Shown: positions 1,165-64,000, counted from the first letter of the stretch. The stretch: 64,000 nt of DNA from an uncultured Chloroflexia bacterium (GCA_963721545.1 CAVRKB010000012.1:31409-95408), one strand, 5' to 3'. Numbers and translations: made by a program. The notes: a model not told the origin generated them from the sequence alone.

Positions 1165-1195
1165 CGCGACAGGGTAGCCCCCGTACACTCGCGCC

Positions 1196-28424: not shown

Positions 28425-28438
28425 GAGACGCTGCAGCG

Positions 28439-31743: not shown

Positions 31744-31745
31744 CG

Positions 31746-32934: not shown

Positions 32935-32966
32935 CCTCGCCGCCGGCGCCCCTACAATCGAACGCC

Positions 32967-34200
<1,234 letters not shown>

Positions 34201-42723: not shown

Positions 42724-43789
42724 ATGCGGATCAGCAATGGCGCCATCCTCCGCGCCACGATCGGGATCGCGATCAGCGTCGTCGCGGTCGTCATCCTCGT
42801 CAGCTCGGTCGACATCGAGGCGGCGCTCCAGGTCCTCGCCACGGCGTCGCTCGCCTGGATCGCGGTCATGTTCGTGACGACCACCGTCGACATCGGCGCC
42901 CGGGGCGCCCGCTGGCGAGCCCTCCTCGCGCCGATTGCGCCGCTGCCCTACCGGCGGGTCCTCGGCTACACGTACATCGGCTACCTCGCCAACAACGTGC
43001 TGCCGGCCCGCCTCGGCGAGCTGTACCGCAGCCATGCCCTCGGGGAGGGGGAGGGGATCAGCCGCACGACGGTCCTCGGCACGGTCGTCGTCGAGCGCGT
43101 GGTCGACACCGTGATGGTCGTCACGATCGCCGCGCTGGCGGTGCTGGTGCTGAGCGTCCGCGGCGTGATGACCAGCGCGGTCCTGCTCGGGCTGGCGTTC
43201 GTCGCGCTGCTCGTCGTCGTGCTCGGACTGGGGATCGCCGCCCATCGCCTGCCCGGCGCCGATCGCGTCGCGGCGATCATCGCCCGCCGGCCGCGCGCTC
43301 CTCGAGCTGGCACGCCGGCTGCGCGACGGGCTGGCCGTGGCCGGGAAGCCGCGCGTGATCGGCGCCGCCCTCGTCTGCAGCGCCGTGGCGTGGGCCGCGT
43401 CGACCGGCACGTTCCTGGCGGCCGGCCAGGCGGTCGGCGTCGAGCTCAGCCTCGCGCAGGCGGCGCTGCTCACGAGCGGCGTGGCGCTGGTGTCGATCGT
43501 GCCGTCCGGCCCGGGCTACGTCGGCACGTTCGAGCTGACGGTCGTGGCGATCGCCGACGGCCTGGGGATCCCGCGCGATTCGGCGTTCGCGCTCGGCCTG
43601 CTCGTCCACCTGATGATCCTGCTGACGACGTCGGTCGGTGGCGTGACGGCGATGCTGCTGCTCCGGCGGCGGCGGGCGGCGGCCGCGCTGGCCGAGGCGG
43701 CGGCCGCGGACGGTGCCGCGACCGAGATCGGGCCAGCGCCGACACGGGCGGAGCCGCGAGACGTGGCGGAGGGCGAACCCGCGCCATGA
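42724..43789 (+). CDS. flippase-like / lysyl-PG-synthase-TM-region family membrane protein (UPF0104), one apparent frameshift
   Basis: Polytopic membrane protein immediately downstream of GT2. LANNVLPARLGELYRSHAL motif. The C-terminal four helices are in the +1 frame after about 43290. Confidence 0.55.
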
Positions 43790-45777
43790 CCGCGGCGTTC
43801 CCGCACGTCTTCGAGCCGCTCCGGCTGCGACACCGGACGCTGCGCAGCCGGATCACGTTCGGGGCCCACACCGCGAACATGGCCGAGGACGGGCTGCCCG
43901 GCGAGCGACACATCGGCTACTACCGCGAGCGGGCGCTCGGCGGCGCCGGGATGATCGTCGTCGAGCCGATCCCGATCCATCGCACGGCGGTCCTCACCCG
44001 CGGCAACTTCCGCCACTCGGACGATGCCGTCATCCCGGCCTTCCGGCGGGTGACCGACGCCTGCCGCGAGGCCAGCCCGGACGTCGTGCTCATCCACCAG
44101 CTGTACGACGTCGGCCAGCACGGCGACGCCGACAACTCGTTCGCGCCCAACTGGTCGCCGTCGGGGCTGCCGTCGTACCACGACGCCGACGGCAGCCACG
44201 CGATGACCGAGCCGGAGATCGAGGAGCTGATCGCCGGCTTCGTCGCGGCGGCCGGCCGGGCGCAGGCCAGCGGCTTCGACGGGATCGAGCTGTTCGCCGC
44301 CTACCACGCGGTCGTCGACCAGTTCTGGGCGCCTTGGTCGAACCGCCGGACGGACGCCTGGGGCGGCACGTTCGAGTGCCGGATGCGCTTCTCGGCCGAG
44401 ATCCTCGGGCGGATCCGCGAGCGCTGCGGCGACGACTTCATCGTCGGGCTCGCGGTCAGCGTCGACCCGGGTGCCGAGGCGACGCTGTCGATCGACGAGC
44501 TGGCCGAGGTCGTGGCCTGGCACGACGAGCGGCGGCTGATGGACTACGTCACCTGCGGAACCGGCTCGTACTTCGACTTCTACCAGATCATGCCGACGTC
44601 GCTGTACGACGCACGCCTCGGCGAGCCGCACGCGGCAGCGCTCAAGCGGGTCGTTCGGCACGCGCTCGTCCAGGCCGAGAGCCACATCCGGACCCCGGCC
44701 GCGGCCGAGGCCGTGCTGGCCGCCGGTCATGCCGACATGGTCAGCATCGTCAGGGGCCAGATCGCCGATCCGCACCTGGTGGCGAAAGCCCGCGACGGCC
44801 GCGCCGACGACGTCCGGCCGTGCATCTCGTGCAACCAGCTGTGCTGGGGCCGACGCTCACGCGACCTGTGGATCTCGTGCCTCGTCAATCCGTCGGCCGG
44901 TCGTGAGTTCGCTTGGGACGGCGACCGCTTCGAGCCGAGCCGGCGGCCACGCAACGTGCTCGTGGTCGGTGGCGGGCCGGCGGGCCTCGAGACGGCGCGC
45001 GTGGCGGCCGAGCGCGGCCACCGGGTGACCCTGGCCGAGCGGGGCGACGAGCTCGGCGGCCAGTTCCGGCTGGCCGGCCGGCAGCCGAGCCGCGGCCAGA
45101 TCCTCGACCTGCTCGCCTGGTACGAGCGACAGCTGGCGGCGCTCGGCGTGGACATCCGCCTGGGGCATGAGGTCGGCGCGGACGAGGTGGCGGCCGCGGG
45201 TGCGGACGAGGTCGTCGTGGCGACCGGGTCGCGGCCGCCGGGCACGGGCTTCCAGCGCGCGCTGCCGACCGTCGACCGTCTCCCCGGGGTGGACGGCGCG
45301 GACGTGCTGTCGATCCAGGACGTGCTGGCCGGCACGGCCGTCGCGGGCCGGCGGGTCATCGTCCTCGACGACGTCGACGACTGGCGGGGGATCGGGACCG
45401 CGCTGTATCTCGCGGAGCGCGGCCACGAGGTCACGCTCGTCAGCGCGGCCGCGGTCGTCGCCCAGGGCCTGTTCCACAGCGCCGCCGACGTGCCGCTCCG
45501 CCGCCGCTTCGCGGGGGCCGGCGGGACGATGCTCCCGTCGTCATCAGTCCTCGGCTGGCGCGACGGCGTGGCGCTCGTCCGCTCGACGCTGACCGGCGAG
45601 CTGACCAAGCTCGCTGCGGACGCGCTGGTCGTCGCCGAGACGCCCGTCGTCGTCGACGCGCTGGCCGGCGAGCTGACCCGGCGGGGCGTCGCGTTCCACC
45701 AGGTCGGCGATTGTGTCGCGCCGCGGCGAGCCAGCATGGCGTTCTACGAGGCGCGCGAGCTCGCCCGCCGTCTCTGA
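43789..45777 (+). CDS. fused OYE-like FMN oxidoreductase / [4Fe-4S] / FAD-NAD(P)-binding enzyme (trimethylamine dehydrogenase / N-methylproline demethylase StcD / 2,4-dienoyl-CoA reductase architecture)
   Basis: Intact 662-aa ORF. OYE TIM-barrel N-terminus (RSRITFGAHTANM...GFDGIELFAAYH), 4Fe-4S motif CISCNQLCW...C, then NVLVVGGGPAGLETA dinucleotide fold. Confidence 0.85.
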   Translation, partial: TAAFPHVFEPLRLRHRTLRSRITFGAHTANMAEDGLPGERHIGYYRERALGGAGMIVVEPIPIHRTAVLTRGNFRHSDDAVIPAFRRVTDACREASPDVVLIHQLYDVGQHGDADNSFAPNWSPSGLPSYHDADGSHAMTEPEIEELIAGFVAAAGRAQASGFDGIELFAAYHAVVDQFWAPWSNRRTDAWGGTFECRMRFSAEILGRIRERCGDDFIVGLAVSVDPGAEATLSIDELAEVVAWHDERRLMDYVTCGTGSYFDFYQIMPTSLYDARLGEPHAAALKRVVRHALVQAESHIRTPAAAEAVLAAGHADMVSIVRGQIADPHLVAKARDGRADDVRPCISCNQLCWGRRSRDLWISCLVNPSAGREFAWDGDRFEPSRRPRNVLVVGGGPAGLETARVAAERGHRVTLAERGDELGGQFRLAGRQPSRGQILDLLAWYERQLAALGVDIRLGHEVGADEVAAAGADEVVVATGSRPPGTGFQRALPTVDRLPGVDGADVLSIQDVLAGTAVAGRRVIVLDDVDDWRGIGTALYLAERGHEVTLVSAAAVVAQGLFHSAADVPLRRRFAGAGGTMLPSSSVLGWRDGVALVRSTLTGELTKLAADALVVAETPVVVDALAGELTRRGVAFHQVGDCVAPRRASMAFYEARELARRL

Positions 45778-45837
45778 GTCCCGCTCCGCCGTACCATTGC
45801 GGTCGGCGGATCACGCGCTCGAGCCCGAGGTGATCAG

Positions 45838-47385
45838 ATGGCTGTCCCTGACGTTGAACGCCCGACGCTGCGGCGCGGTCGGGCAGCGCGCCAGACCGAG
45901 CGGCTGGCTCGCCACATGGACACCGTCCCATACCTGACCCGCCGCCTCGCCCCGGTCGAGGTCGTCTCCACCGAGGGCCTCGAGCAGATCGAGGCCAACG
46001 CCGACACGCTCCTCGAAGAAGTCGGCATCGAGATCGTCAACTTTCCCGAGGCGACCGAGATCTTCCGCGGTGCCGGGGCGGATGTCACCGACCAGCGCGT
46101 CCGCTTCCCCCGCGGCATGTGCCGCGCACTCGTTCAGGCGACGGCGCCACGGCTGTTCGCGCAGCGCGCCCGGAACGAGGCTCGCAGCGTCCAGATCGGC
46201 GACCCGTACATGGTCCTCGTCCCGACCTACGGCTCGCCGTTCATCCACAACCTCGACGAGGGACGGCGCTACGCGACGATCGAGGACTTCCGCAACTTCG
46301 TGAAGCTGACCTACACGAGCCGGACGCTCCACCACGGCGGCGGGACGCTGTGCGAGCCGGTCGACCTGCCGGTCAACAAGCGCCACTTCGAGATGGTCTA
46401 CAGCCACATCCGCTACTCGGACCGCGCGTTCATGGGCTCCGTGACGCACCCCAGCCGGGCCCAGGATTCGGTCGACATGGCGCGCATCGTGTTCGGTGGC
46501 GAGACCATGGAGACCGAGCACGTGATCATGGGTCTGGCCAACGCCAACTCGCCGATGTCGTGGGACTTCAACATGCTGGGCTCGGCCAAGGTCTACGCCG
46601 AGAACAACCAGATCATGCTCATCACGCCGTTCATCCTCGGCGGCGCGATGGCCCCGGTCACCGTCGCGGCGCAGGCGACACAGACCCTCGCGGAAGCGCT
46701 CGCCGGGATGGCGTTCTGCCAGATCGTCCGGCCGGGGGCGCCCGTCATCTTCGGCTCGTTCGCGTCATCGATGTCGATGCAGTCGGGCGCGCCGACGTTC
46801 GGCACTCCGGAGCCGCAACTGGTGCTGTTCGTGCTCGCCGCGCTGTCGCGCCGGCTGGGCGTCCCATTCCGGAGCGGCGGCAACTTCACCGCCTCCAAGC
46901 TGCCCGACTACCAGGCCGCCTATGAGAGCGCGATCAGCTACATGGCGACGATGCAGGCGGGCGTCAACTTCAACCTCCACACGGCGGGCTGGCTGGAGGG
47001 CGGCCTCGCCGTCGGGTACGAGAAGTTCATCCTCGACGAAGACCAGGCGTCGATGACCGAGGCCTACATCAAGGGCGTCGACGTCACCGACAACGGCTAC
47101 GCGCTCGACGCCATGCTTGGCGGCGGGCCCGGCCAGCACTTCCTGGGCTCGCCCCACACGCTGGCGAACTTCGAGACGGCGTTCTGGCGGTCCGAGCTGT
47201 CGAACAACGACTCCTTCGAGCAGTGGGAGATCGACGGTGGCCTCGACGCCGCGCAGCGCGCGAACCTGCGCTGGAAGAAGCGCCTGACCGAATACGAGCG
47301 GCCGGCGCTCGACGACGCGATCCACGACGAACTCGTCGAGTGGATGGACCGGCGCAAGGCGAGCTTCCCCGACTCGGACGTCTAG
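45838..47385 (+). CDS. MttB-superfamily (trimethylamine methyltransferase family, non-pyrrolysine) quaternary-amine methyltransferase homologue
   Basis: Intact 515-aa ORF with MttB-family TIM-barrel blocks (PFIHNLDEGRRYATIEDF, GGAMAPVTVAAQATQT, SMQSGAPTFGTPE, GWLEGGLAVGYEKFILDED). No in-frame TAG. Confidence 0.85.
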   Translation: MAVPDVERPTLRRGRAARQTERLARHMDTVPYLTRRLAPVEVVSTEGLEQIEANADTLLEEVGIEIVNFPEATEIFRGAGADVTDQRVRFPRGMCRALVQATAPRLFAQRARNEARSVQIGDPYMVLVPTYGSPFIHNLDEGRRYATIEDFRNFVKLTYTSRTLHHGGGTLCEPVDLPVNKRHFEMVYSHIRYSDRAFMGSVTHPSRAQDSVDMARIVFGGETMETEHVIMGLANANSPMSWDFNMLGSAKVYAENNQIMLITPFILGGAMAPVTVAAQATQTLAEALAGMAFCQIVRPGAPVIFGSFASSMSMQSGAPTFGTPEPQLVLFVLAALSRRLGVPFRSGGNFTASKLPDYQAAYESAISYMATMQAGVNFNLHTAGWLEGGLAVGYEKFILDEDQASMTEAYIKGVDVTDNGYALDAMLGGGPGQHFLGSPHTLANFETAFWRSELSNNDSFEQWEIDGGLDAAQRANLRWKKRLTEYERPALDDAIHDELVEWMDRRKASFPDSDV

Positions 47386-47400
47386 CCGGAGGCCCGGGCG

Positions 47401-48340
47401 TCAGCGGCGGGCGAACGTCTCGATCAGCATCGACACGAACTTCGGCGCATCGGCGTCGAACGCGACGAAGGCGTTCGGCTCCTTGTCCGGCAGCGCGCGG
47501 GTGTCCATGATCGTGCGCCCGATCGTGCCCTCGCCGCGGGTCTCGACGTCGACGTGGATGCGCCGGCCGGTCACCACGCTCGGGTCCACCAGGTAGGCGA
47601 CGCACAAGGCGTCATGAACCGGGGCCGTGTGGGCGACGGCCATCGGCTGGAGGTCGTCGTAGGCGACGATCCGGTGCTCGATGAAGTCCGCCGCGGCCTG
47701 CCCGGCCGGCGTGCCCGACTCGCGCATCCGGCGGCAGTCGTCGAGCGACACGAGCGCCCGGTGCGTGGCGTCGAGGGGCATGACCACGACGTTCTGGAGC
47801 CCCGCCCCGAACACGACGCGGGCCGCCTCCGGGTCGACCCAGATGTTGAACTCGGCGGATGCCGTGGTGTTCCCCTTCTCGTGGCAGCCGCCCATGATGA
47901 TCGTCTCGGGGATCCGCTCCACGATCCGCGGCTCGAGCTTGATCGCCATCGCGATGTTGGTCAGCGGTCCGACCGGGACGAGCGCGATCGGCTCGCGTGG
48001 CGGCCAGGTACGTCTCGACCAGGAACTCGACCGCCCGCTTCGACTGCTTGACCGAGCGCGGCTTGGGGATCGGCAGCTCCAGCCCGTGCATCCTGCCCTT
48101 CTCCTGGATGACCTCGCGCGGCGTCGGGAAGTCATCGCGGACCATCGGCGTCGCCATGCCCTCGTAGACCGGGATGTCGAGGCCGAGGAGGTCGAACACG
48201 CGCAGCGTGTTGTCCGTGCAGTTGACGACCGGGTTGTTGCCGTTGACCGTCGTCGCGGCCACGAGCTCGAGGTCGGGGTGGAGCGCAGCCAGCATCAGCG
48301 CGACGGCGTCGTCCGTGCCGGTGTCGACGTCGAGGATCAA
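47401..48340 (-). CDS. nucleoside hydrolase, second paralogue (one apparent frameshift)
   Basis: MILDVDTGTDDAVALMLA N-terminus (TTG start). PVGPLTNIAMAI...IIMGGCHEKGNTTASAEFNIWVDPEAA is in the +1 frame after about 48000 (1-nt indel near acgcgagccg). Confidence 0.7.
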
Positions 48341-48364
48341 CTTCGTTTCGGCATGGCCGTAGGG

Positions 48365-49560
48365 CTAGGCGCCGGTCGGGCGGGCCGGTCGTCGGGCGTG
48401 CCGGTCGAACCGCCGCGGCTCGTCGGCCGTGGCGGCCTCGGCGGCCGCCTGGGCCTCGGCCGCCGCAAGCGCGTCGGCGACCGCGTCGACCACGGCACCC
48501 GCCTCACCCGACTCGTCCGCCGGCGGCGTGACCAGCACCTCGCCGGTCTCGGCCGCTCGCTGCTGCAGCCGGCCGAGCTCCTCGAGCGGGATGTGGCAGC
48601 TCATCAGGTGACCCGGCTCGACCTCGACCAGCGGCGGCTCGGTCACCTCGCACAGGCCGCGGATCACGCGGTGGCAGCGCGTGTTGAAGACGCAGCCGGT
48701 CGGCGGGTTGGCCGGGCTCGGGATCTCGCCCTCGAGCAGGATCCGCGGCGCGGTCCTCGCCGTCGACGTTCGGGACGGCCGACAGGAGCGCCTCGGTGTA
48801 GGGGTGGTTCGGGCCGCGGAAGACCGTCTCCGAGTCGCCGACCTCCATGATCCGGCCGAGGTACATGACCGCGATCCGGTCGGCCAGGTAGCGGACCACC
48901 CCGAGGTCGTGCGAGATCAGCAGGTAGCTCGTCTTGCTCTTGAGCTGGAGGTCGGACAGCAGGTTGAGGATCGCGGCCTGGACCGACACGTCGAGCGCGC
49001 TCGTCGGCTCGTCGGCGACGACGATCTTGGGGTCGCCGGCGAACGCCCGCGCGATCGCCAGCGCGCTGCTTGAGCCCGCCCGACAGCTGGCGCGGCTTGA
49101 GGTCGAGGTGGCGCTGGGTCAGGCGCAGGTCGGCGGCCAGCTTGTCGACCCGCTCGTTGACCGCCTTGCCCTTGAGCCCGGTGAGCTTGCTGACCGAGCG
49201 GGTCAGGATGTGGCGTGCCGTCCAGCCGCGGTTGAGCGCCGAATCGGGGTTCTGGAAGACCATCTGGATCGAGCGCTTGTCGTCGGTCGGCCGGTTCGTC
49301 GAGAGCGGCGCCAGCGTCGTGGTCGTCGAGCTCGATCCGCGCCGCCGGCGTCGGGCGCTCTCGATGCCGAGGATCGTCTTGGCCATGCGTCGACTTGCCC
49401 GAGCCCGACTCGCCGACGAGCCCGAGCGTCTCGCCGTCGTACAGGTCGAGCCCGACCTTGACCAGCGCCGGCACGTCGTGGCCGCTCTGGTGGAACGTCT
49501 TGGACACGTTGGTCAGCGACAGCGCGAGGTCGCCGTGGACGCGTCTCCTGGCCGGCGATC
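48365..49560 (-). CDS. Opp/Dpp-family ABC transporter ATP-binding protein (OppF-like), about 3 apparent frameshifts; 5' boundary approximate
   Basis: Walker [13 protein letters not shown], signature LSGGLKQR, and the C-terminal oligopeptide-ABC extension [15 protein letters not shown]...CHIPLEEL, spread over four frames. Confidence 0.6.
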
Positions 49561-50620
49561 GCCGGCGGCTCGACCAGCTCGCCGAGCCGGTCGACGTGGT
49601 GGCAGCAGCGTCCAGCGCCCGGGCCCGACCTCGACGACCGGCGGGACGACCGTCCGGCACAGGTCGGTGGCCAGCGGGCAGCGGTCGACGAACACGCAGG
49701 TCGGCAGGTCCGTGCCGATCTGCGGCAGGTTGCCCGGGATCGTCGACAGCGACCGCTGCGACTTGCGGATGCCGTGGCGCGGCAGCGAGCGCAGCAGGCC
49801 CGAGCGTGTACGGATGCTGCGGGTTCTCGAAGACCGTCGCCGCGTCGCCCTCCTCGACGATCTTGCCGGCGTACATCACGCCGACCCGGTCGCACAGCGT
49901 CCGGATGACGCCGAGGTTGTGGGCGATCAGCAGGACCGCCGCGTTCGTCTCGGCCTGGAGCGAGCGGACGAGGTCGAGGACGCTCGCCTCGACCGTCGCG
50001 TCGAGGCCGGTCGTCGGCTCGTCGAGGACGAGCAGCTTCGGGTCGGAGGCGAGGGCGATCGCGATCACGACGCGCTGCTGCATCCCGCCCGACAGCTGGT
50101 ACGGGTAGCGCTGGGCGACCCGCTCCGGGTCGGCGATCTGGACCCGCTCGAGCGCCTTGAGCGCGCTCGCCTCGGCCTCTTCCTTGCCCTGGCCGAGGAT
50201 CGTGAACGCCTCGACGACCTGCGGCCCGACCTTGGTCGTCGGGTTGAGCGCGGCGCCGGGGTCCTGGTAGACCATCGACGCGTGGTGCATCCGGAAGCGG
50301 CGCACCTCGTCGTCGGTCATCTTCGTGACGTCGTCGCCGCCGACCAGGATCCGGCCGCCGGTGATGACGCGCGTTGCGTGGCAGGTAGCGGACCGCGGCA
50401 TAGGCCGTCGTCGACTTGCCGCAGCCGGACTCGCCGACCAGGCCGTACGACTCGCCCGGCCGGACCTCGAACGACACGCCGCGGAGCACCGGGCGCTGGA
50501 TGCCGCGCACGACGTAGGCGAGCGACAGGTCCTCGACCCGCAGCGCGGCCTGGCGCGCCGCCCGACGCGCCGGGGCCGGCTGCCCGGGACCGGCCGCGGG
50601 CGCGCCGCCTCGGTCGTCAT
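49513..50620 (-). CDS. Opp/Dpp-family ABC transporter ATP-binding protein (OppD-like), about 4 apparent frameshifts; 3' boundary approximate
   Basis: GLVGESGCGKSTTA Walker A, YPYQLSGGMQQRVVIA signature, LLVLDEPTTGLD Walker B, PQHPYTLG and a C-terminal CVFVDRCPLATDLC Cys motif, in alternating frames. The ATG overlaps the oppC stop (ATGA). Confidence 0.6.
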
Positions 50621-51508
50621 TCGCTCAGCACCGACTGGAGCGAGTCCGCGATCAGGTTGACGGCGATGACCGTGCTGGCGATGGCGAGCGCCGGGAACAG
50701 CGTCGGCCACCACACGCCGGAGATCATGTTGTTGTACTCCTCGGCGACCGACAGGCCCCAGTCGGGCGACGGCGGCTGGAGGCCGACGCCGAGGAACGAC
50801 AGCGTGGCGACGGTGAAGATCGCGTAGCCGAAGCGGACGGTCATCTCGACGACCGTCGGGCCGAGGACGTTGGGGAAGATCTCGCGCGACAGGATGAACG
50901 GCCCCGATTCGCCGCGGAGCTTGGCCGCCGTGACGTAGTCGAGCTGGCGCTCCGACAGGACCGCCGAGCGGACGGTTCGGGCGACGATCGGGGTGAACAG
51001 GATGCCCACGACGCACACGACGACGAGCGGCGACGTCCCGAGCACGACCAGCGTGAGCAGCGCGACGAGCACCACGGGCAGCGCCAGGAACGCCTCCACG
51101 ATCCGGCTCAGGACGTCGTCGACGGTCCCCCGGTAGTAGCCCATGACCAGGCCGAGGAGCGTCCCGGCGACCACCCCGAGCAGGGCCGCCAGCGGAGCGA
51201 CGATCAGGACGTCGCGCGATCCGACCATGACCCGCGACAGCACGTCGCGGCCGAGCCGGTCGGTGCCCATCAGGTGCTCCGAGCTGGGCGGCAGGTGGCC
51301 GGCGAAGAACTGGTTGAACGGGTCGTACGGGCGTGATCCGCTGGCCGAGGATGGCCGTGATGATCCAGCCGATGAGCACGATGTTGCCGATGATGAAGGC
51401 CGGTCGCCGGACGAGCTGGCGGAAGGTCTCGCGCCGGGCCTGGGAGCGCTCGGACACGGCCGGTCCGGCCACCGGGGCGACGGGCTGGGGCGTGATCGTG
51501 ACGTCCAT
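50617..51508 (-). CDS. Opp/Dpp-family ABC permease (OppC-like), one apparent frameshift
   Basis: EAA-loop region and the C-terminal five helices in the 50617 frame. N-terminal MDVTITP...FIIGNIVLIGWIITA in a second frame. Confidence 0.65.
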
Positions 51509-52462: not shown

Positions 52463-52549
52463 GGGCTACCTCACCCGGACGACGGAGAACGAAGAAGGGC
52501 CGATGGGGTGAACATCGGCCCTTCGTGGTCGAGAGGTCAGGCCGTCTTG

Positions 52550-54271: not shown

Positions 54272-54446
54272 CGCTGTACTCCTCCGGCATCCACCCTGGC
54301 AGGGTCGCGCGCTCGCGAGCATCGTTCGCGGACAGCCACCGCCCGGCCACGGGTTCCTCCTCCGAGCGGCGGTGTCTCGGAACGGTACTGGCGGCCCCTC
54401 GCACTGTCAACGAACCCGACTCGCAACACTGCGCGATACTCGCGCC

Positions 54447-55558: not shown

Positions 55559-57068
55559 CCGCCGGGACCAAGCGCGACGCTCGACGACTGGCTTGCTCGG
55601 GCGGCCGCGGTTGCGCCCCGGACGGAGCTGTTCGTCGACGGGCGGTTCGCGCCGGCCGCCTCGGGTCGGACGTTCGACGACATGGCGGGCCGCGACGGGT
55701 CGCGGATCGCGGCGGTGGCGGAGGGCGGCACGGAGGACGTCGACCGCGCCGTCGCAGCCGCCCGCCGCGCCTTCGACGACCGGCGCTGGTCGGACCAGCC
55801 GCCGCATGGCGCGCAAGAAGGTCCTGCTCCGCCTCGCCGAGCTGGTCCGCGAGCACCTCGAGGAGCTCGCCCTGCTCGAATCGCTCGACGTCGGCAAGCC
55901 GATCCGCGACACGCTCCGGGTGGACGTCCCGAGCGCCGCGACGACGCTCCAGTGGTACGCCGAGACGATCGACAAGACGTACGGCGAGGTCGGCCCGACC
56001 GGGCCGGACGCCCTGTCACTGGTGACCCGCGAGCCGATCGGCGTCGTCGCCGCGATCGTGCCCTGGAACTACCCGCTGATCATCACCGCCTGGAAGCTGG
56101 GCGCCGCCCTGTCGACCGGCAACTCGGTCGTGCTCAAGCCGGCCAGCCAGTCGCCGCTGACCGCGCTGCGCCTTGCCGAGCTCGCCGCCGAGGCGGGGCT
56201 TCCGGACGGCGTGCTCAACGTGGTGACCGGTCCGGGCCAGGTCATCGGCGACGCACTGGCGCGCCATCCCGGCGTGGACAAGATCGCGTTCACCGGCTCG
56301 ACCGAGGTGGGTCGTTCGCTGCTCCGCGCGGTCGGGGAATCGGACGTCAAGGCCATCTCGCTCGAGCTCGGCGGCAAGAGCCCGCAGGTCGTGCTGGCCG
56401 ACGTCGGCGACCTCGAGGCGGCCGCCTCCACGATCGGCTGGGGGATCTTCTACAACAGCGGGCAGACCTGCAACGCCGGGTCGCGCCTCGTCGTCCATCG
56501 CTCGCACCGGGCGGAGCTGGTCGAGCGGGTGGCGGCATTCGGTCGGACGGTGGCGCCGGGCGAGCCGCTCGACCCGCGGACCAAGCTCGGCTCGATCGTC
56601 GACGAGCGCCAGCTGGCGAAGGTCCTCGGCTACGTGCAGCTCGGGCGCGAGGAGGGTGCCACCGTCGTCGCCGGCGGCGAGCGCGTCCGGGAGGAGAGCG
56701 GCGGCGCGTACATCGGCCCGACGATCCTCGACGGCGTGGCCAACTCGATGCGGGTCGCGCGCGAGGAGATCTTCGGACCCGTCCTGACCGTGACCGAGTT
56801 CGACGACGAGGACGAGGCGATCGCGATCGCCAACGACTCGCCGTACGGCCTGGCCGCCGGGCTGTGGACCCGCGACGTCAAGCGCGCCCACCGGCTCGCC
56901 CGGCGGATCCGAGCGGGCGTCGTGTGGGTCAACACCTTCGACACGGCCGACATCACGGTCCCGTTCGGTGGCTACAAGCAATCCGGCTTCGGGCGCGACA
57001 AGGGCCTCCCGGCGCTCGACGGGTACACCCAGCTCAAGACGACCTGGCTCGACCTGTCGGACGGCTAG
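55555..57068 (+). CDS. NAD(P)-dependent aldehyde dehydrogenase (two apparent frameshifts near the 5' end)
   Basis: IVPWNYPLIITAWK, ELGGKSP, YNSGQTCNAGSRL catalytic Cys, EEIFGPV. The first 80 codons are spread over three frames. ATGA overlap with the enolase-family stop. Confidence 0.75.
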
Positions 57069-57156
57069 CCCGGCTCCGACGGGGCACCGGCGCGCTACAC
57101 TCACCGTTCGACGAAACCGCCGATGAAAGACGAGCGCTCCAGGGGGTGATCGACAT

Positions 57157-57565
57157 GACGGACCAGACGAGCACGGCGTCGGGGGCCGCCAAAAAGGATG
57201 ATGCTGCAGCCCTCGAGCCGACCCAGGCCGAGATCGACGCCTGGGCCGCCCGCGAGCGACAGCGGCGCGAGGCGTGGCTGAACGGTCCGTCCGAGGAGGA
57301 GCGCGCCGAGTACGCGCAGCACCTCCGGCACCGCCGGCTGGCATCGACCTTCGACGAGGGCGAGGCCCGCATCGCCGACACCGTCCGCATGGGGGTCCGC
57401 TACGGACGCGAAGGCCAGCTCGCGATGGAAGGGGCGATGGCGCTCCTCTATCGCTTCTCGCGCAGGAGCTTCGCGGAGCTGGTCCGTGCCGGTCGTGAAT
57501 GGGAGGAGGAGACGACGCTCCCGACTCGGCGCAAGCGCGTATCGCTGGACGACGAGGGCTCGTGA
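57157..57565 (+). CDS. hypothetical protein
   Basis: Intact 136-aa charged, helix-rich ORF between the ALDH and the UbiB kinase. No recognised domain. Confidence 0.45.
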
Positions 57566-57658
57566 CGTCGCCGGCCCCACGCCCGGGCACCCGGTAGCGC
57601 GCACCTCGCGACAGCCGTCCCGGCGACGCGCCGTCGCCAGTGACCAGGGCCACGCCCC

Positions 57659-59362
57659 ATGAGAACGCTGTTCCGGCATCCGCGCCGGGTCTGGCACGTC
57701 CTCGCCGTCTTCTTCGTCCTGTTCATCGCTCCGGCCTTCCACCTGCCCGGCTCGGACCGGCGCAGCCGGCCGGTCCGGATGCGGATCGCCTTCGAGCGTC
57801 TCGGCGGCGCCTGGATCAAGTTGGGCCAGATGCTGGCGCTGCGCTTCGACCTGCTGCCCGCCGCCTACTGCGACGAGCTGTTCAAGCTGCTCAACCAGGT
57901 TGCCCCGTTCTCCTACGACGAGGTCCGCGCCATCGTCCGCAAGGAGCTCGGTGCCGAACCCGAGACGGTCTTCCGGTCGTTCTCGCACGAGTCGTTCGCC
58001 GCGGCCTCCATCGGCCAGGTCCACCGCGCCGTGCTCCACAGCGGGGAGCAGGTCGCCGTCAAGGTCCAGCGGCCGGGCATCCGCAAGACGCTCGGGGCGG
58101 ACATCGCGCTGATGTACTCGACGACCTGGATCCTCGATTGGAGCCACGTCTTCGGGGCGACGAAGAGCCGCGAGGTCATCGACGAGTTCGCGCGCTGGAC
58201 CGCCGACGAGCTCGACTACATGGTCGAGGCGCGGCAGGCCGTCCTCCTGTACCAGAACGCGCAGGGTGACAAGGTCGAGCGCATCGCCCGCGTCCACCGC
58301 GACTACACCACGTCGCGCGTCCTGACCACCGAGCTGATCGTCGGCATCCCGCTGATCGACATCATGGTCGCCAAGCGCGAGGGCAACACCGCGTACCTCG
58401 AGGCGCTGGCCGCCCGCGGCCACGACCTCGATCGGATCGTCCGCAACCTCGACTGGAACATGCTCAATCAGGTCTACGTGTTCGGCTACTTCCACGCCGA
58501 CCTGCATCCGGCCAACCTGTTCGTCCTGCCGGGCGACGCGATCGGCTACGTCGACTTCGGGATCGTCGGCCAGCTGCCCGATCGCGTCCGGGATTCGCTC
58601 ACCCGCTACAGCTGGCTGCTCTTCCGGGGCGAGGTCGAGTCCGCCGTCCTGGAGCTCATGCGCTGGCTTGCACCGGGACCTGAGACGGACATCGCGACCA
58701 CCCGCTGGCAGCTGATCCGCGTCCACCAGGCGTTCCTGTACGACACCGTCGCGGACCGCCTGCGGACGACCGAGGCGGCGCCCGGCCCCGCCCAACACAA
58801 GGAAAACCCGTATTCGAAGCTGGCGGTCGACATCCTCGACACGATCCGCGTCCAGCAGCTGACGATGTCGTCCAGCATCGTCGGCTACCTCAAGATGCTG
58901 GTCACGCTCGGCACGCTGCGGCATTCGCTCGCCGTCGAGTACGACCTGCAGGAGACCGTCCGGCGCTTCGTTCGCCGCCTCGCACGTCAGCAGGGGCTGG
59001 CCCTGCTCGACCCTCGCCGGACGTTCGACCGGCTCTACGCCGGCACGGGTCGGATCCAGCGCACGCTGGAGTTCCTGGAGTTCGTCGAGGCCCAGGAGCC
59101 GGTCATCACCGAAGCGACCACCATGCTGTTCGGCTACCGCAACCGGATCCGGCGCGTGAAGCAGCGGCTCATCGGCTTCGGCACCGCCGTCCTGGTCGTC
59201 GGCGCGGTGCTGTACCTGGTCCTCGTCTTCCCCGACGATACCCGGCGGATGATTCCCCGGGAGCTGGACTACACCTGGCTCCAGCTCGGCCTCCTGGCGG
59301 TCCTGCTCGTCCTGATCGTCAACCTCATCCGCAACATGCGCAGCATGGGTTCCGGGGAGTAG
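57659..59362 (+). CDS. ABC1/UbiB-family atypical protein kinase
   Basis: Intact 567-aa ORF. ASIGQVH...AVKVQRPG lysine motif, FHADLHPANL catalytic loop, IGYVDFG, and C-terminal TM helices. Confidence 0.85.
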   Translation: MRTLFRHPRRVWHVLAVFFVLFIAPAFHLPGSDRRSRPVRMRIAFERLGGAWIKLGQMLALRFDLLPAAYCDELFKLLNQVAPFSYDEVRAIVRKELGAEPETVFRSFSHESFAAASIGQVHRAVLHSGEQVAVKVQRPGIRKTLGADIALMYSTTWILDWSHVFGATKSREVIDEFARWTADELDYMVEARQAVLLYQNAQGDKVERIARVHRDYTTSRVLTTELIVGIPLIDIMVAKREGNTAYLEALAARGHDLDRIVRNLDWNMLNQVYVFGYFHADLHPANLFVLPGDAIGYVDFGIVGQLPDRVRDSLTRYSWLLFRGEVESAVLELMRWLAPGPETDIATTRWQLIRVHQAFLYDTVADRLRTTEAAPGPAQHKENPYSKLAVDILDTIRVQQLTMSSSIVGYLKMLVTLGTLRHSLAVEYDLQETVRRFVRRLARQQGLALLDPRRTFDRLYAGTGRIQRTLEFLEFVEAQEPVITEATTMLFGYRNRIRRVKQRLIGFGTAVLVVGAVLYLVLVFPDDTRRMIPRELDYTWLQLGLLAVLLVLIVNLIRNMRSMGSGE

Positions 59363-59470
59363 CTCGGCCTGCGTCCGGTCCGGTCTCCGGCCGGGGTACC
59401 GGCTAGCATTGGGCGGGTCGTCGATCGGTGGCGCCGCGCCCGGTCGTGGGATCAGCTGCGGGAGACCTGC

Positions 59471-60889
59471 GTGACGGATATGGACACGGCCGCGGGCGAG
59501 GGGCTGCGCCGACGGCGAGGCGGCGGCCGTGAGGGTCATGCCCGCAATGCCCTGCCGCAGCAGCCGCCGTGGGCCCAGCCGCGCCTGCGCTACCCCCCGA
59601 CCGAGCTGCTGTCGGCCGACGAGCTCGAGTCGATCCATACCGGCTCGCTCCGCGTCCTGTCCGAGATCGGGATGGACTTCCTCGACGCGGACGCCCGCGA
59701 GGTCCTGCGCGCCGCCGGGGCGACCGTCGAGCCCGATTCGCAGCGGGTCCGGTTCGACCCCGGGATGGTCACCGAGCTGATCAAGACGGCGCCGGCGCAG
59801 TTCACGCTCCACGCCCGCAACCCCGCGCGTGACGTCCAGCTGGGTGGCGACTGGGTCGCCTTCGGGACCGTCGGCAGCCCGCCCAACGTCGCCGACCTGG
59901 ACCGCGGCCGGCGGATCGGGAACCGGGCCGACTACCAGAACCTGCTGCGCCTCGCCCAGTCGCTCAACGCCGTCCATTTCCTGTCGGGCTATCCCGTGGA
60001 GCCGGTCGACCTCCATCACGGGGTTCGGCACCTGTGGGCGAGCTACGACGCCCTGACGCTGATGGACAAGGCGGTCCACTGCTACAGCCTCGGCCGTCAG
60101 CGCAACATCGACGTCCTCGAGATGGTCCGCATCGCCCGCGGCGTCGACCAGGCGACGATCGACCGGGAGCCGTCGGTCTTCACCGTCGTCAACTCGAGCT
60201 CACCGTTGCGCCTCGACGCCCCGATGCTCCAGGGGATCATGGAGTTCGCGGCCCACAACCAGGTGGTGTGCATCACGCCGTTCACCCTGGCCGGGGCGAT
60301 GGCCCCGGTCACCCTCGCCGGTGCCCTCGCCGAGCAGAATGCCGAGGCGCTGGCCGGGATGGTGCTGACCCAGGCGGTCAATCCGGGTGCCCCGGTCATC
60401 TACGGAGGCTTCACCTCGAACGTCGACATGCAGTCGGGGGCGCCGGCGTTCGGGACTCCCGAGTACATGCGGACGGCGATGATCGGTGGCCAGCTGGCGC
60501 GCCGCTACGGCGTCCCGTACCGGTCCTCGAACGTGTGCGCCGCCAACGCCCTCGACGCGCAGGCCGCCTACGAATCGGTCTTCTCGCTGTGGGGCGCGAT
60601 CCAGGGCGGGGTCAACCTGCTGATGCACGGCGCCGGCTGGATGGAGGGCGGGCTGCACGCCAGCTACGAGAAGATGATCCTCGACGCGGAGCTCCTCGGG
60701 ATGGTCGCCGCGTTTCTCGAGCCGGTCGTGGTGGACGACGAGACGCTGGCCTTCTCGGCGATGCAGGAGGTCGGTCCCGGCGGCCACTTCTTCGGCGCCG
60801 AGCACACCCAGTCGCGCTACCGGACCGCGTTCCACAAGCCGATGCTGAGCGACTGGCGCAACTACGAGACGTGGGAGGAGGCCGGATAG
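59471..60889 (+). CDS. MttB-superfamily methyltransferase homologue, second copy (C-terminal 49 aa continue in the +1 frame to 61038 after an apparent indel creating TAG at 60887)
   Basis: 472-aa frame with MttB-family blocks (GAMAPVTLAGALAEQNAEALAG, DMQSGAPAFGTPE, GWMEGGLHASYEKMILDAE). The downstream +1 frame encodes ANRIWKELLAAYEPPPMDPAIAEELDAFV, homologous to the C-terminal tail of the first MttB copy. Confidence 0.8.
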   Translation: MTDMDTAAGEGLRRRRGGGREGHARNALPQQPPWAQPRLRYPPTELLSADELESIHTGSLRVLSEIGMDFLDADAREVLRAAGATVEPDSQRVRFDPGMVTELIKTAPAQFTLHARNPARDVQLGGDWVAFGTVGSPPNVADLDRGRRIGNRADYQNLLRLAQSLNAVHFLSGYPVEPVDLHHGVRHLWASYDALTLMDKAVHCYSLGRQRNIDVLEMVRIARGVDQATIDREPSVFTVVNSSSPLRLDAPMLQGIMEFAAHNQVVCITPFTLAGAMAPVTLAGALAEQNAEALAGMVLTQAVNPGAPVIYGGFTSNVDMQSGAPAFGTPEYMRTAMIGGQLARRYGVPYRSSNVCAANALDAQAAYESVFSLWGAIQGGVNLLMHGAGWMEGGLHASYEKMILDAELLGMVAAFLEPVVVDDETLAFSAMQEVGPGGHFFGAEHTQSRYRTAFHKPMLSDWRNYETWEEAG

Positions 60890-61049
60890 CCCGGAGCTCC
60901 CTGCCAAGGCCAACCGGATCTGGAAGGAGCTGCTCGCGGCGTACGAGCCGCCGCCCATGGATCCGGCGATCGCCGAGGAGCTCGACGCGTTCGTCGCCCG
61001 GCGGGTGGCCGAGGGCGGCGTCCCGACCGATTACTGAAGGGGACCGATC

Positions 61050-63512
61050 GTGAAGTCATCAGCCCAGGTGTGGTCATCGGCGGCGGCGTCGTCGGGTGCA
61101 GCGTGCTGTACCACCTGACCAAGGCCGGCTGGACGGACGTCGTGCTGCTCGAGCGGCGCGAGCTGACGGCCGGCTCGACGTGGCACGCGGCCGGTGGCAT
61201 GCACACCCTCAACGGCGACCCGAACGTGGCCCGCCTCCAGCAGTACACGATCAAGCTGTACGAGGAGATCGAGCGGGTCTCCGGCCAGGACTGCTCGATC
61301 CATCTGCCCGGCGGGCTGATGCTGGCCGACACGGAGGTCCGCATGGACTTCCTGCGGATGGCCCAGTCGCGCGGCCGCTACCTGGGCATGGACCTCGAGC
61401 TGATCTCCGCGCGCGAGGCGCAGGACCTCTTCCCGCTGCTCGACCCGCAGTACTTCGTCGGCGCGCTGTACGACCCGGTCGAGGGCCACGTGGACCCGAC
61501 CGGCGTCACCCGCGCCTACGCCAAGTGCGCCCAGCTCGCCGGGGCGGAGATCCGCCAGCACACGAAGGTCGACGGGCTCGCCCAGCGCCCGACGGCACGT
61601 GGGACGTCCTGATCGAGGACGGCGACCCGATCCACGCCGAGCACGTCGTCAACGCCGGCGGGCTGTGGGCGCGCGAGGTCGGCCGGATGGTCGGGCTGGA
61701 GCTGCCGGTCCTCGCCATGCAGCACCAGTACCTGCTGACCGTGGACATGCCCGAGGTCGCGGAGCACGTCGCGCAAACGGGCCGCGAGATGCCGATGACG
61801 CTCGACTTCGGCGGCGAGATCTACCTCCGCCAGGAGGGCGGCGGCACGCTGATGGGGACCTACGAGCAGGCCGCCATCCCGTGGTCGCCGAAGGAGACGC
61901 CGTGGGACTTCGGGTCGGAGCTGCTCAAGCCCGACCTCGACCGGATCACCCCGGAGCTCCAGGTCGCCTTCCGCCACTACCCGGCGATGGGCACGACCGG
62001 GATCCGGCGGGTCGTCAACGGCCCGTTCACCTTCGCCCCGGACGGCAACCCGCTCGTCGGCCCGATCCGCGGGCTGCGCAACTTCTGGGTCGCCTGCGGG
62101 GTGATGGCCGGGCTGTCGCAGGGCGGCGGCGTTGGCCTCGCGCTGGCGGCCTGGATGACCGCCGGCGACCACGGCGACTCGGGCATGGATATCTGGGCGA
62201 TGGATGTCGCGCGGTTCGGCGATTACGCGACGCTGGCCTACACCAACGCCAAGGTCCAGGAGAACTACCGGCGCCGGTTCCGGATCACGTTCCCGAACGA
62301 GGAGCTGCCGGCCGCCCGGCCGCTGCTGACCACGCCGATCCACGACCGGCTGACCGCCGCCAACGCGGTATGGGGCGCGTCGTTCGGGCTCGAGCACGTG
62401 CTGTGGTTCCAGAAGCCCGGCCTGCCGCCGTTCGAGGACGTGACGTTCCGCCGGTCGAATGCCTGGGAGCCGGTCGCCGGCGAGGTCGAGGCCGTCCGCG
62501 AGCGGGTGGGGCTGACCGAGATCTCGAACTACGCCAAGTACCGCGTGACCGGCCCGGGCGCCGAGGCGTGGCTGTCGTCGCTCCTCACCGCGCGGATGCC
62601 GAAGGCCGGGCGAATGACGCTCACCGCGATGCTCAACGACGGGGCCGGATCGTCGGCGAGTTCACCGTGGCCCGGCCCGACGACGGCGACACGTACTACC
62701 TGTTCGGCTCGCTCGGGGCGGAGGTCCATCACTCGCGCTGGTTCCGCGCCCACCTGCCCGCCGACGGGAGCGTCCGCTTCGAGGTCCTCGGGCTGTCGCT
62801 GACGGGGCTGTCGATCGCCGGGCCGCACGCCCGTGACGTCCTGGCGTCGATCACCGACGAGGACCTGTCGACCGAGGCATTCCGGTTCATGGACTTCCGG
62901 CGGGTCGACCTCGGGATGATCCCGGCGCTCGTGGCGCGGATCAACTACGCCGGCGACCTCGGCTACGAGCTGTGGGTCGCGCCGGAATACCAGGCCGCGC
63001 TGTTCGACGCGGTGATGGCCGCCGGGCAGGAGCACGGCATCCGCCTGTTCGGCTTCCGCGCGCTGATGTCGCTCCGGCTGGAGAAGAGCTACGGGACCTG
63101 GTTCCGCGAGTACCGGCCGATCTACACCCCGGCCGAGGGCGGGATCACCAACTACCTCAAGCTCGACCACGAGTTCATCGGGCGGGCCGCGCACGAGGCC
63201 GAGCTGGCCGCCGGTGGCCCCGCCCGCCGGCTCGTCGCGCTCGTCGTCGAGCCGGATCCGGACGATCCAGCGGATGTCATCGGCGACGAGCCGATCTGGC
63301 ACGGCGGCGAGGTGGTCGGCTGGGTGACCTCGGGCGGCTACGGCCACCACGTCAAGCAGTCGATCGCGCTGGGTTACGTACCCGCGGCACTGGCGGACCC
63401 GGCCGGTCCGGGCGCCGACGGCTTCGAGATCGAGATCATCGGCCGGCGCCGGCCGGCCCGGCTCCAGCCACGGCCGCTGTTCGACCCCGAGGGCGCCCGG
63501 ATGCGCCAGTGA
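61050..63512 (+). CDS. dimethylglycine/sarcosine dehydrogenase-family FAD oxidoreductase with C-terminal GcvT-like folate-binding domain (about 3 apparent frameshifts)
   Basis: VVIGGGVVGCSVLYHL DAO Rossmann, HAAGG, GLWAREVG, FGLEHVLWF; then the aminomethyltransferase-like domain (ARINYAGDLGYELW, GFRALMSLRLEKSYG, GWVTSGGYGHHV) in a third frame. GTG at 61050 is proposed only if a 1-nt indel restores MKSSAQVVVIGGG. Confidence 0.75.
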
Positions 63513-64000
63513 CCGAAGGGGCCTCGCCCGAAGTCGAGGGCGCGCCCGGACGGATCGTCGTCGACGGGCGGCCGCTAGCGTTCGAGCCGGGCGACTCGGT
63601 GGCCGTCGCGATCCTGCGCGCCGGCGAGGTCCCTGGGCGCGGCGGGACGCTGTGCCTCGCCGGCGACTGCGGGAATTGCCTGGCACAGGTCGACGGCGTG
63701 GCCTACGTGCGGACCTGCCAGACCGCGGCCCGGCCCGGGATGGCCGTCGTCCGGCACCCAGCCGGTTCGAAGCCGCCACTCCCCGTGGTTGCCGGCCCGG
63801 ACCTGACCTCCCCGCCGGTCGAGCGGGAGGTGCCGGTCTGGCGCGTCGAAACGGACATGGCGGTCATCGGCGGCGGGACCGCGGGCGCCACGGCGCGTGC
63901 AGCCGCGGAGGGTGCCGGTCGCTCGTCGATGCTGCTCGACGCGGCCGCCGGCGACGAGGTGGTGGCGATCTACCCGGGTCCGACCATCGTGGTCCGGACG
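63509..64000 (+). CDS. sarcosine-oxidase-alpha-like subunit, N-terminal part (2Fe-2S ferredoxin-like domain then FAD-binding motif); continues beyond window
   Basis: GTGA overlap with the preceding stop. RIVVDGRPLAFEPGDSVAVAIL...CLAGDCGNCLAQVDGVAYVRTCQT ferredoxin-like segment, then MAVIGGGTAGATAA dinucleotide motif. Confidence 0.55.
   Translation, partial: MTEGASPEVEGAPGRIVVDGRPLAFEPGDSVAVAILRAGEVPGRGGTLCLAGDCGNCLAQVDGVAYVRTCQTAARPGMAVVRHPAGSKPPLPVVAGPDLTSPPVEREVPVWRVETDMAVIGGGTAGATARAAAEGAGRSSMLLDAAAGDEVVAIYPGPTIVVRT

Follow-up and report, generated by a model that had tools for sequence, protein, structure and literature searches.

Studies in aerobic bacteria have linked proteins of family pfam06253, which lack pyrrolysine, with cobalamin-dependent demethylation of betaines. 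Mausz et al. (PNAS 2025, PMC12478193) found that such proteins (MtgB) are induced in the aerobe Ruegeria pomeroyi, and the MtgB/MtgC/MtgD system, with or without MtgE, is described for R. pomeroyi, Phaeobacter inhibens and Sinorhizobium meliloti. The genes mtgB, mtgC and mtgD are unlinked in R. pomeroyi and clustered in S. meliloti, a genome may carry up to seven pfam06253 paralogues, and genes for the demethylation of dimethylglycine (DMG) and sarcosine are often near (PMC12478193). Our results indicate that a 64,000-nucleotide stretch from an uncultured Chloroflexia bacterium (GCA_963721545.1, CAVRKB010000012.1:31409-95408; hereafter the window) harbours an island, built around two MttB-superfamily genes (MttB1 and MttB2), that probably serves the uptake and stepwise N-demethylation of betaines and depends on a corrinoid through MtgC and MtgD encoded in trans. 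The island is most likely a Chloroflexota example of the published aerobic, cobalamin-dependent MtgB-type demethylation, and not new chemistry. The original prediction, made from the DNA alone, had proposed a quaternary-amine (betaine-type) demethylation island, which is supported, and an MttB-catalysed first demethylation followed by flavin- and tetrahydrofolate (THF)-dependent demethylases, which is supported as probable; it had regarded betaine methyltransferases of this family as known from anaerobes, a view overtaken by the aerobic systems just cited.

The island shares with the aerobic MtgB/MtgC/MtgD system a pfam06253 enzyme without pyrrolysine in an aerobe, the presence of paralogues, partner genes that are likewise possibly unlinked, and neighbouring genes of the DMG/sarcosine demethylation type; moreover, MttB1 belongs to the same clade and bears the same pocket signature. 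It differs in phylum (Chloroflexota), in that both MttBs are extra paralogues outside an mtgC operon, in the linkage of MttB1 to old-yellow-enzyme (OYE)-type flavoenzymes and to a Dpp-type importer, and in the assignment of MttB2 to a second clade.

Picking et al. (JBC 2026, PMC13080624) identified Y97, F356, R312 and H348 as the residues with which MtgB from Desulfitobacterium hafniense binds glycine betaine, and reported that R312, and largely H348, are conserved in family members acting on acidic quaternary amines. The window enzymes have the same fold and family as that protein (PDB 2QNE, 9YCE; PMC13080624), with an identity of about 39%, and both retain the carboxylate-binding Arg and His (R345 and H381 in MttB1, R351 and H386 in MttB2). 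The equivalent of Y97 is kept by MttB1 (Y131) and lost by MttB2 (Gly135), and the F356 position is occupied by Gly in both (Gly389 and Gly394), with a conserved Trp four residues earlier (Trp385 in MttB1). The gene of the D. hafniense enzyme itself we take to be DSY3156. Its likely cognate corrinoid protein is encoded by the neighbouring gene DSY3155 (PMC13080624), whereas no corrinoid-protein gene adjoins either MttB in the window. In Eubacterium limosum, MtpB, MtcB, MtyB and MthB act on proline betaine, carnitine, gamma-butyrobetaine and phosphocholine, respectively (PMC12478193). That system shares the principle of several MttB-family paralogues with differing specificities and one corrinoid protein (PMC12478193, PMC13080624); E. 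limosum is a strict anaerobe, unlike the window organism, and the likeness drawn here is one of principle.

In the pathway that we propose, the Dpp-type ABC importer would take up a betaine, that is a quaternary amine bearing a carboxylate, and MttB1 and MttB2 would each strip the first methyl group from a betaine. The methyl group would be passed to the corrinoid protein MtgC and then, through the pterin methyltransferase MtgD, to THF, while RamA and DUF1638 would reductively reactivate the corrinoid. In a first module, the OYE-type enzyme OYE1 (plus a second one, OYE2, in relatives) would remove the remaining methyl groups after MttB1; in a second module, a DMG dehydrogenase (DMGDH)-like enzyme and a sarcosine-oxidase-like complex, SoxA(G)BD, would act after MttB2. 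The aldehyde dehydrogenase (ALDH) of the island, and an iron-containing alcohol dehydrogenase (Fe-ADH) placed just past the window, could feed in choline-type alcohols.

Two clades of MttB homologues were separated by tblastn searches against plasmids and chromids, annotated neighbourhoods, an alignment and a neighbour-joining (NJ) tree. MttB1 falls in clade A, where its type forms a subclade of its own within the canonical MtgB sequences; it clusters with an already described aerobic function, an outcome that the original prediction had counted against a new route. Its 515-codon open reading frame (ORF) is uninterrupted and has no in-frame UAG, which places it in the non-pyrrolysine branch. 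In the PDB it matches 4YYC (613 bits) and D. hafniense MtgB 2QNE (360 bits), and identity is 56-57% to the S. meliloti MtgB, whose gene adjoins mtgC and mtgD, and 58-69% to homologues linked to corrinoid genes. The pocket signature given above is that of every such cassette-linked clade A MtgB in the alignment, and this identity with the canonical aerobic enzymes suggests that glycine betaine is most likely the substrate of MttB1.

The linkage of the family to corrinoid machinery is widespread. In S. meliloti the MtgB gene adjoins genes for a cobalamin-binding protein, DUF1638, a methyl-THF:cobalamin methyltransferase, MetF and ASKHA/RamA, as well as bmt genes. A survey of clade A, with one genome per species, gave 80 loci that were screened with seed proteins. 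Among the loci less than 80% identical to MttB1, two thirds (50/75) have at least one gene of the mtgC-DUF1638-mtgD-ramA cassette and 36/75 have all four, and cassette genes are borne by 29 of the 37 clade A loci with full flanks. In five Chloroflexota loci of 70-72% GC (L016, L024, L029, L031 and L043) the order is mtgC-DUF1638-mtgD-ramA-mtgB. A sixth high-GC Chloroflexota locus with a complete cassette, L098, lies outside the survey on a 2.2-Mb contig and reads DMGDH-ETF-IclR-MtgC-...-Pterin_bind-RACo-MTTB-MTHFR, with an ALDH also in the cluster. MtgC from one such Chloroflexota locus has homologues of 86-91% identity that are named Candidatus Limnocylindrales; one of these homologues lies in the Candidatus Limnocylindrales assembly GCA_036393495.1, which shows IclR-MtgC-DUF1638 before its contig ends, and another is the MtgC of L098. 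In four metagenome-assembled genomes (MAGs) of Gammaproteobacteria (L036, L044, L046 and L076) a single cassette of mtgC, DUF1638, mtgD and ramA stands between one clade A and one clade B MttB, and the first three also have a metF match at the cassette. Both MttB clades are therefore physically tied to corrinoid machinery somewhere in bacteria, and the flanking of one cassette by the two clades suggests that in aerobes one corrinoid protein serves two methyltransferase specificities. By comparison with these relatives, the partner genes of the window enzymes are most likely encoded elsewhere in this genome, as an mtgC-DUF1638-mtgD-ramA-mtgB operon.

Several points weigh against this reading. 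Pfam searches of the 64-kb window, which for the first part (1-43.8 kb) used frame-corrected pseudo-proteins and ORFs from regions of atypical composition, revealed no methyltransferase-type corrinoid gene and no pterin-binding, MtrH, RACo/RamA or DUF1638 domain. Judged from syntenic relatives, there is no corrinoid, pterin or RamA gene in the 10 kb past the window end, and the MttB1-type genes (window, L001, L002 and L010-L014) showed no cassette gene in their vicinity. The case for a trans-encoded cassette comes from related MAGs only. In R. pomeroyi, mtgC and mtgD are backed by genetics and MtgB by proteomics (PMC12478193), and no biochemical assay of an aerobic clade A or clade B MttB is on record. 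MttB1 lacks the equivalent of F356, and in MttB2 both aromatic residues are missing at the aligned positions. In the PDB, OYE1 scores higher with FadH (1PS9, 240 bits) and NCR (235 bits) than with histamine dehydrogenase (178 bits) and trimethylamine dehydrogenase (TMADH, 170 bits), and its best NCBIfam model is one of the FadH/OYE family, below its cut-off. Finally, MttB2, the DMGDH-like gene, the transporter genes, the ALDH and a gene of the enolase superfamily are frameshifted as assembled.

That corrinoid and MtgA partners are missing nearby had been stated for the 20 kb of the island, and the statement extends to the 64 kb and, by syntenic relatives, to the adjoining 10 kb, where the pair that was thought possible just outside the window is not found either. 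The window does encode one B12-binding protein, but it is of the CarH/LitR-like type; its domains are the only B12-binding ones present, and they belong to a regulator and not to a methyltransferase partner. A B12-dependent regulator of this kind suggests that the cell has cobalamin.

The absence of such partners from the 20 kb had been read as a sign of a hybrid or undescribed aerobic route; on that reading the MttB homologues would work without corrinoid, with another methyl acceptor or by direct coupling to the neighbouring flavoenzymes. The lack of corrinoid and pterin methyltransferase genes in the 64 kb and the syntenic flanks agrees with this idea, as do the habits of the MttB1 subclade: with no cassette gene nearby, all its members (window, L001, L002, L010-L014) are linked to an ABC importer, in L001, L002 and L010-L014 with the fused ATPase gene, and most to OYE1, OYE2 or both, L002 to neither. 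The comparative evidence all counts against it. MttB1 is nested in the cassette-linked MtgB clade with an identical pocket signature, both clades flank a single cassette in Gammaproteobacteria, and complete mtgC-mtgD-ramA-mtgB operons occur in the same lineage. Moreover, R. pomeroyi is a documented case of partner genes that are not linked (PMC12478193), which makes the missing neighbouring gene uninformative, and the characterised family members all methylate a corrinoid (PMC13080624). We regard a corrinoid-free route as very unlikely.

MttB2 groups in clade B with homologues from S. meliloti pSymA, Mesorhizobium and Parasedimentitalea. It matches 4YYC (375 bits) and D. hafniense MtgB 2QNE (about 347 bits), and over 100% of its length it shares 95% identity with P0121, an intact homologue of 521 aa. 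The TAG at 60887-60889 (codon 473) was considered as a pyrrolysine codon and rejected: it arises from a 1-nt insertion relative to L003 in the DNA alignment, its position is wrong, and past it the homology runs on in a different frame. With an intact ORF in MttB1 and an indel artefact in MttB2, the non-pyrrolysine status first assigned to both homologues stands. Throughout clade B the Arg is kept, and so is the His in all proteins except that of L093 (Gln), while the pocket Tyr is always replaced by Gly, Ala, Ser or Thr and the SPF after it is mostly PPN. Given the loss of the tyrosine, MttB2 may act on a carboxylate betaine in a roomier pocket, either glycine betaine or a bulkier one.

The partners of clade B genes recur. 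On S. meliloti pSymA the clade B gene adjoins genes for a DMGDH-like oxidoreductase and a LysR regulator, with a betaine-type ABC system, a gene of the mandelate racemase/muconate lactonising enzyme (MR/MLE) group and an Ldh-family gene farther along. The context in Parasedimentitalea is SoxG-A-D-B, LysR, MttB, an Xaa-Pro peptidase family gene and DMGDH-like, and in L048 and L067 the clade B MttB is followed by a DMGDH-like gene. The window enzyme, as a stitched 816-aa protein, possesses all four domains (DAO, FAO_M, GCV_T and GCV_T_C) in the order of known DMGDH; it is 59% identical to the L048 and L067 enzymes, 43% to that of pSymA and 26-39% to DMGDH-like proteins at canonical MtgB loci. 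By these identities, it forms with the enzymes beside clade B genes an orthogroup of its own.

As in the DMGDH plus SoxABDG systems, SoxA-, SoxB- and SoxD-like genes lie directly downstream in relatives, whereas the proteins of the window and of the relatives all score below the curated cut-offs. In L003 and L004 this region encodes a SoxA-like protein of 731 aa, a 124-aa ORF, SoxB (406 aa), SoxD (80 aa) and the Fe-ADH (394 aa). The SoxB of relatives reaches 394 bits with TIGR01373, below the cut-off of 529, the SoxA-like protein is short compared with the 996 positions of the soxA model TIGR01372, and the Fe-ADH scores alike with lactaldehyde reductase and GbsB choline dehydrogenase, below the NCBIfam cut-offs. 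The Pfam domains confirm that a DMGDH-like THF-dependent enzyme and a SoxA-like subunit are present, as anticipated. The ALDH had been put forward as a candidate alpha-ketoglutarate-semialdehyde dehydrogenase, an assignment that we reject: that model gives 352 bits, and the PuuC and betaine-aldehyde dehydrogenase (BADH) models score higher (605 and 512 bits), all three below their cut-offs. On these scores the ALDH appears closest to the aminoaldehyde/betaine-aldehyde (PuuC/BADH-like) type. In L003 and L004, MttB2 and the DMGDH-like gene are separated by about 0.7 kb (11566-12282) that holds two small domain-less ORFs, one of 51-77 aa and one of 151 aa, unlike the window, where the two genes are almost contiguous (61037-61070).

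OYE-family flavoenzymes with an Fe/S cluster demethylate N-methylproline, as shown biochemically for OYEBi of Burkholderia insecticola and, as cited there, for StcD of S. meliloti (PMC11759058). OYE1 has the same architecture of FMN-OYE domain, Fe/S cluster and FAD domain, and likewise lies near a betaine- or dipeptide-type ABC transporter, the comparison being by description and not by sequence. Its four-Cys motif, CxxCxxxCx11C (CISCNQLCWGRRSRDLWISC), is canonical, whereas the OYEBi cluster has a Cys-to-Ala change at the second position (PMC11759058). The three-domain arrangement of OYE1 (PF00724, Pyr_redox_2 and the four-Cys [4Fe-4S] motif) is that of TMADH and histamine dehydrogenase. Pseudomonas aeruginosa DgcA presumably has a like architecture. 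The TMADH/StcD-like enzyme of the original prediction is thus present as an architecture, but its nearest matches are the FadH and NCR reductases, ahead of the amine dehydrogenases. OYE1 is 58.6% identical to an enzyme of a Rhizobium leguminosarum plasmid, the gene of which follows a proline/glycine-betaine ABC system and precedes an Ldh-family oxidoreductase; the same cluster has an OYE2-type enzyme with genes for electron-transfer flavoprotein (ETF) and formaldehyde detoxification. The Sinorhizobium fredii orthologue is convergent with an adjoining MttB gene, and in Limnocylindria relatives OYE1 adjoins the MttB gene. From this neighbourhood alone, OYE1 is a candidate demethylase of an N-methyl amino acid or a tertiary amine.

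OYE2 (684 aa) directly follows MttB1 in L001 (11556-13610), L010 (11579-13627) and L011 (11566-13614), and also in L014; it is absent from the window (47385-47401), and L012 and L013 are likewise without an OYE2-type match. It shows no four-Cys motif in a regular-expression scan, and it shares 52% identity with a rhizobial NADH:flavin oxidoreductase adjoining ETF genes.

It may also be asked whether the co-localisation is only partly functional, with the MttBs using trimethylamine, tetramethylammonium, choline derivatives or methylated sulfur compounds and the flavoenzymes serving unrelated pathways. Consistent with this, the aerobic clade A and clade B enzymes are without a demonstrated substrate, the substrate-binding protein (SBP) of the importer is of the family-5 Opp/Nik type and not a ProX/OpuAC-type betaine binder, and nothing evident ties the enolase-family gene, UbiB or the nucleoside hydrolase to betaines. 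Such substrates are nonetheless unlikely, in view of the carboxylate-binding Arg and His of MtgB conserved in both MttBs (PMC13080624) and of the recurrent demethylase partners, since MttB with a DMGDH-like gene (with SoxBDAG in Parasedimentitalea) and MttB with OYE1 are pairings that recur across phyla. In addition, neither gene has the pyrrolysine codon needed for tertiary-amine substrates, and a clade A gene of Azoarcus adjoins betA, betB, a choline SBP gene and folD.

The Opp/Dpp-type importer and the UbiB kinase are both present, as predicted. Intact homologues of the ATPase in L001, L003 and L004 measure 703-727 aa and contain ABC_tran and oligo_HPY twice, and the permease homologues in relatives carry BPD_transp_1 domains. 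The SBP begins with MDFPKLDKV...RREFIQ...AACGG; L003 and L004 have an intact SBP_bac_5 homologue (562-574 aa), and with NCBIfam the window protein gives only weak NikA/Opp matches. In the case of the enolase-family enzyme, an HpbD-like function had been suggested and is rejected here, given that the PDB and NCBIfam favour acid-sugar dehydratases and cycloisomerases. The best PDB matches are 4GGB/4HPN, the galactonate dehydratase 5OLC and 3SJN, the best NCBIfam matches are galactonate, galactarate and arabinonate dehydratases, and no betaine or hydroxyproline-betaine epimerase or racemase is named among the 60 PDB matches listed. Nor is any of these 60 known to be an HpbD entry. The protein is 25% identical to the MR/MLE gene product of the S. 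meliloti pSymA betaine cluster and contains the motifs 'DVHQPD' and 'SPHTW', which we take to resemble those of the MR subgroup. The nucleoside hydrolase occurs at this island position in L011 and is absent from L001 and L010, UbiB/ABC1 is syntenic in close relatives only, and the position of the small ORF between ALDH and UbiB is kept in L003-L005 (ORFs of 123-134 aa). These three and the enolase-family enzyme are probably bystanders.

Two features of the island are uncharacterised parts of the known scheme: the MtgB paralogue linked to OYE-type enzymes, and clade B with its own DMGDH-like partner. Our literature search found no account of this island or of clade B substrates. It is conceivable, although we give it only a small chance, that the MttB1 subclade, the OYE enzymes and the importer form a new functional unit, either with a new betaine specificity or with the methyl group or product handed directly to the OYEs without MtgC and MtgD, and that clade B with its DMGDH-like and Sox-like orthogroups would constitute an uncharacterised pathway that breaks down, in three steps, some betaine that is not glycine betaine. 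The OYE-linked paralogue and the tyrosine-less clade, with its distinct DMGDH-like partner across phyla and, in Parasedimentitalea, SoxBDAG as well, are leads for substrate discovery in the MttB superfamily.

The window has a G+C content of 72%, and raw ORF lists are therefore crowded with spurious frames. Genes were mapped by frame-aware segmentation on codon-position GC (GC3) and by stitched translations, and confirmed with Pfam; simple ORF picking by a GC3 threshold wrongly fused genes and was replaced by the segmentation. Every gene of the original inventory was recovered at or near its predicted place (Table 1). No island protein matched an NCBIfam model above the curated cut-off, so that no equivalog-level names are justified, and Rfam at the gathering threshold detected in the window no riboswitch (cobalamin, glycine or THF) and no other RNA.

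Table 1. Genes of the island, the B12-binding regulator and examples of frame breaks, with positions in the 64-kb window.
Feature	Position	Strand	Remarks
MerR helix-turn-helix + B12-binding_2 + B12-binding protein	38549 to ~39530	+	CarH/LitR-type architecture; frameshift near 38880
OYE1 (FMN domain + [4Fe-4S] motif + FAD/NAD(P) domain)	43786-45777	+	662 aa, intact; PF00724 + Pyr_redox_2
MttB1	45838-47385	+	515 aa, intact; PF06253 689 bits, profile positions 2-500 of 500
Inosine-uridine-preferring nucleoside hydrolase	47401-48364	-	PF01156 282 bits; one frameshift ~47995
Fused two-domain ABC ATPase, Opp/Dpp type (DppD/F-like)	48365-50624	-	stitched translation; multiple frameshifts
DppC-like permease	50617-51511	-	tblastn with intact L003 permeases
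DppB-like permease	~51514-52470	-	tblastn with intact L003 permeases
Family-5 (Opp/Dpp/Nik-type) SBP lipoprotein	52550-54271	-	stitched translation; several frameshifts
MR/MLE enolase-superfamily enzyme	~54463-55558	+	PF13378 + PF02746; one frameshift ~54862
NAD(P)-dependent ALDH	~55559-57068	+	PF00171 561 bits; one frameshift ~55806
Small ORF	57155-57565	+	136 aa; no Pfam match
UbiB/ABC1 atypical kinase, C-terminal transmembrane segments	57659-59362	+	567 aa, intact; PF03109 196 bits
MttB2	59471-61037	+	521 aa stitched; PF06253 665 bits, profile positions 1-500 of 500; one frameshift ~60889
DMGDH-like enzyme, FAD/THF-dependent N-methyl amine dehydrogenase or oxidase type	61070-63512	+	~816 aa; DAO + FAO_M + GCV_T + GCV_T_C; frameshifts ~61588, ~62640
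SoxA-like subunit, N-terminus only	63548-64000	+	PF13510 (Fer2_4) + start of FAD/NAD domain; cut by window end
Frame-break examples	32222-32251; 33400-33580; 42245-42252; 42462; 47995; 51320-51330; 51567; 52191-52216; 54862; 55806; 60889; 61588; ~62640		

Nearly all window genes longer than about 1 kb switch reading frame at least once. Comparison with intact homologues gave at least 13 frame breaks over 16 genes, seven of them outside the island and three in total across the two ABC permeases, and the ABC ATPase and SBP are fragmented beyond these. Taken at face value, such breaks would mean a decaying island, with MttB2, the DMGDH-like gene, the transporter genes, the ALDH and the enolase-family gene as pseudogenes and only OYE1, MttB1 and UbiB functional. 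The breaks that were aligned at the DNA level are 1-nt indels with local mismatches and do not lie in long homopolymers, so that the error type alone is not diagnostic. In tblastn searches with intact homologues, query coverage is contiguous over the frame changes in the permeases, the enolase-family gene, the ALDH, MttB2 and the DMGDH-like gene, and equally so in the upstream glycosyltransferase, LPG-synthase-like gene, thiolase and 3-hydroxyacyl-CoA dehydrogenase (3HCDH) gene; coding-type GC3 bias and high amino-acid identity persist over every break. The breaks affect the whole window, including PaaABCD, and short-read assemblies of close relatives are intact, whereas relatives on contigs named contig_N, taken to be long-read assemblies, are as fragmented, a pattern typical of consensus indel errors. 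On this evidence the frame breaks are most likely uncorrected long-read consensus errors and not pseudogenes, and decay of the island is very unlikely.

Homologues of MttB1 and MttB2 with 83-95% identity occur in MAGs labelled Chloroflexota or Candidatus Limnocylindria/Limnocylindrales, and by these matches the host is a Candidatus Limnocylindria-like member of the Chloroflexota. It is an aerobic, high-GC bacterium of soil or freshwater. Limnocylindria is a Chloroflexota class of soil, sediment and fresh water (MAG and metagenome contig matches; PMC11264602), and one study reports that Limnocylindria MAGs bear mttB-like genes, with nothing further on them. If the proposed function is true, the aerobic cobalamin-dependent betaine demethylation of marine Proteobacteria also runs in Limnocylindria, and this class then has a share in the betaine turnover and the B12 demand of those habitats. 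The aerobic lifestyle predicted at the outset is borne out by genes for a Cu/Zn superoxide dismutase, the PaaABC oxygenase and sarcosine oxidase.

Syntenic intact loci are L001, L003, L004, L010, L011 and L014. The order in L001, L010, L011 and L014 is (OYE1)-MttB1-OYE2-(nucleoside hydrolase)-ABC importer, with an OYE1 match in the first three and none in L014. In L010, L011 and L014 the importer is followed by the enolase-family gene, to which L010 adds the ALDH, while the L001 contig stops inside the importer. L003 and L004 show the other half: ABC importer-enolase-ALDH-small ORF-ABC1-MttB2-DMGDH-like-SoxA-like-124 aa-SoxB-SoxD-Fe-ADH. This synteny indicates that the sarcosine-oxidase-like set and the Fe-ADH continue past the window end, without corrinoid genes.

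Outside the island, the Cu/Zn superoxide dismutase gene lies at about 17.5 kb, and a cluster for PaaABCD phenylacetyl-CoA oxygenase, enoyl-CoA hydratases, 3HCDH and thiolase lies upstream of the island at about 28400-34200 (+); the two support aerobic life, and between PaaC/PaaD and thiolase, 3HCDH included, the cluster shares its synteny with the start of L001 (1-3057). A second inosine-uridine nucleoside hydrolase is encoded at 631-1293 (-), beside a shikimate kinase at the window start. The gene at about 19017-19790 (+), which is divided between two frames, encodes a Rieske [2Fe-2S] protein whose leader is twin-arginine-like. A long ORF at about 21850-23450 (-), where the sequence is non-coding by the GC3 model, gives no Pfam match and contains recurring 'DG.SW' motifs.

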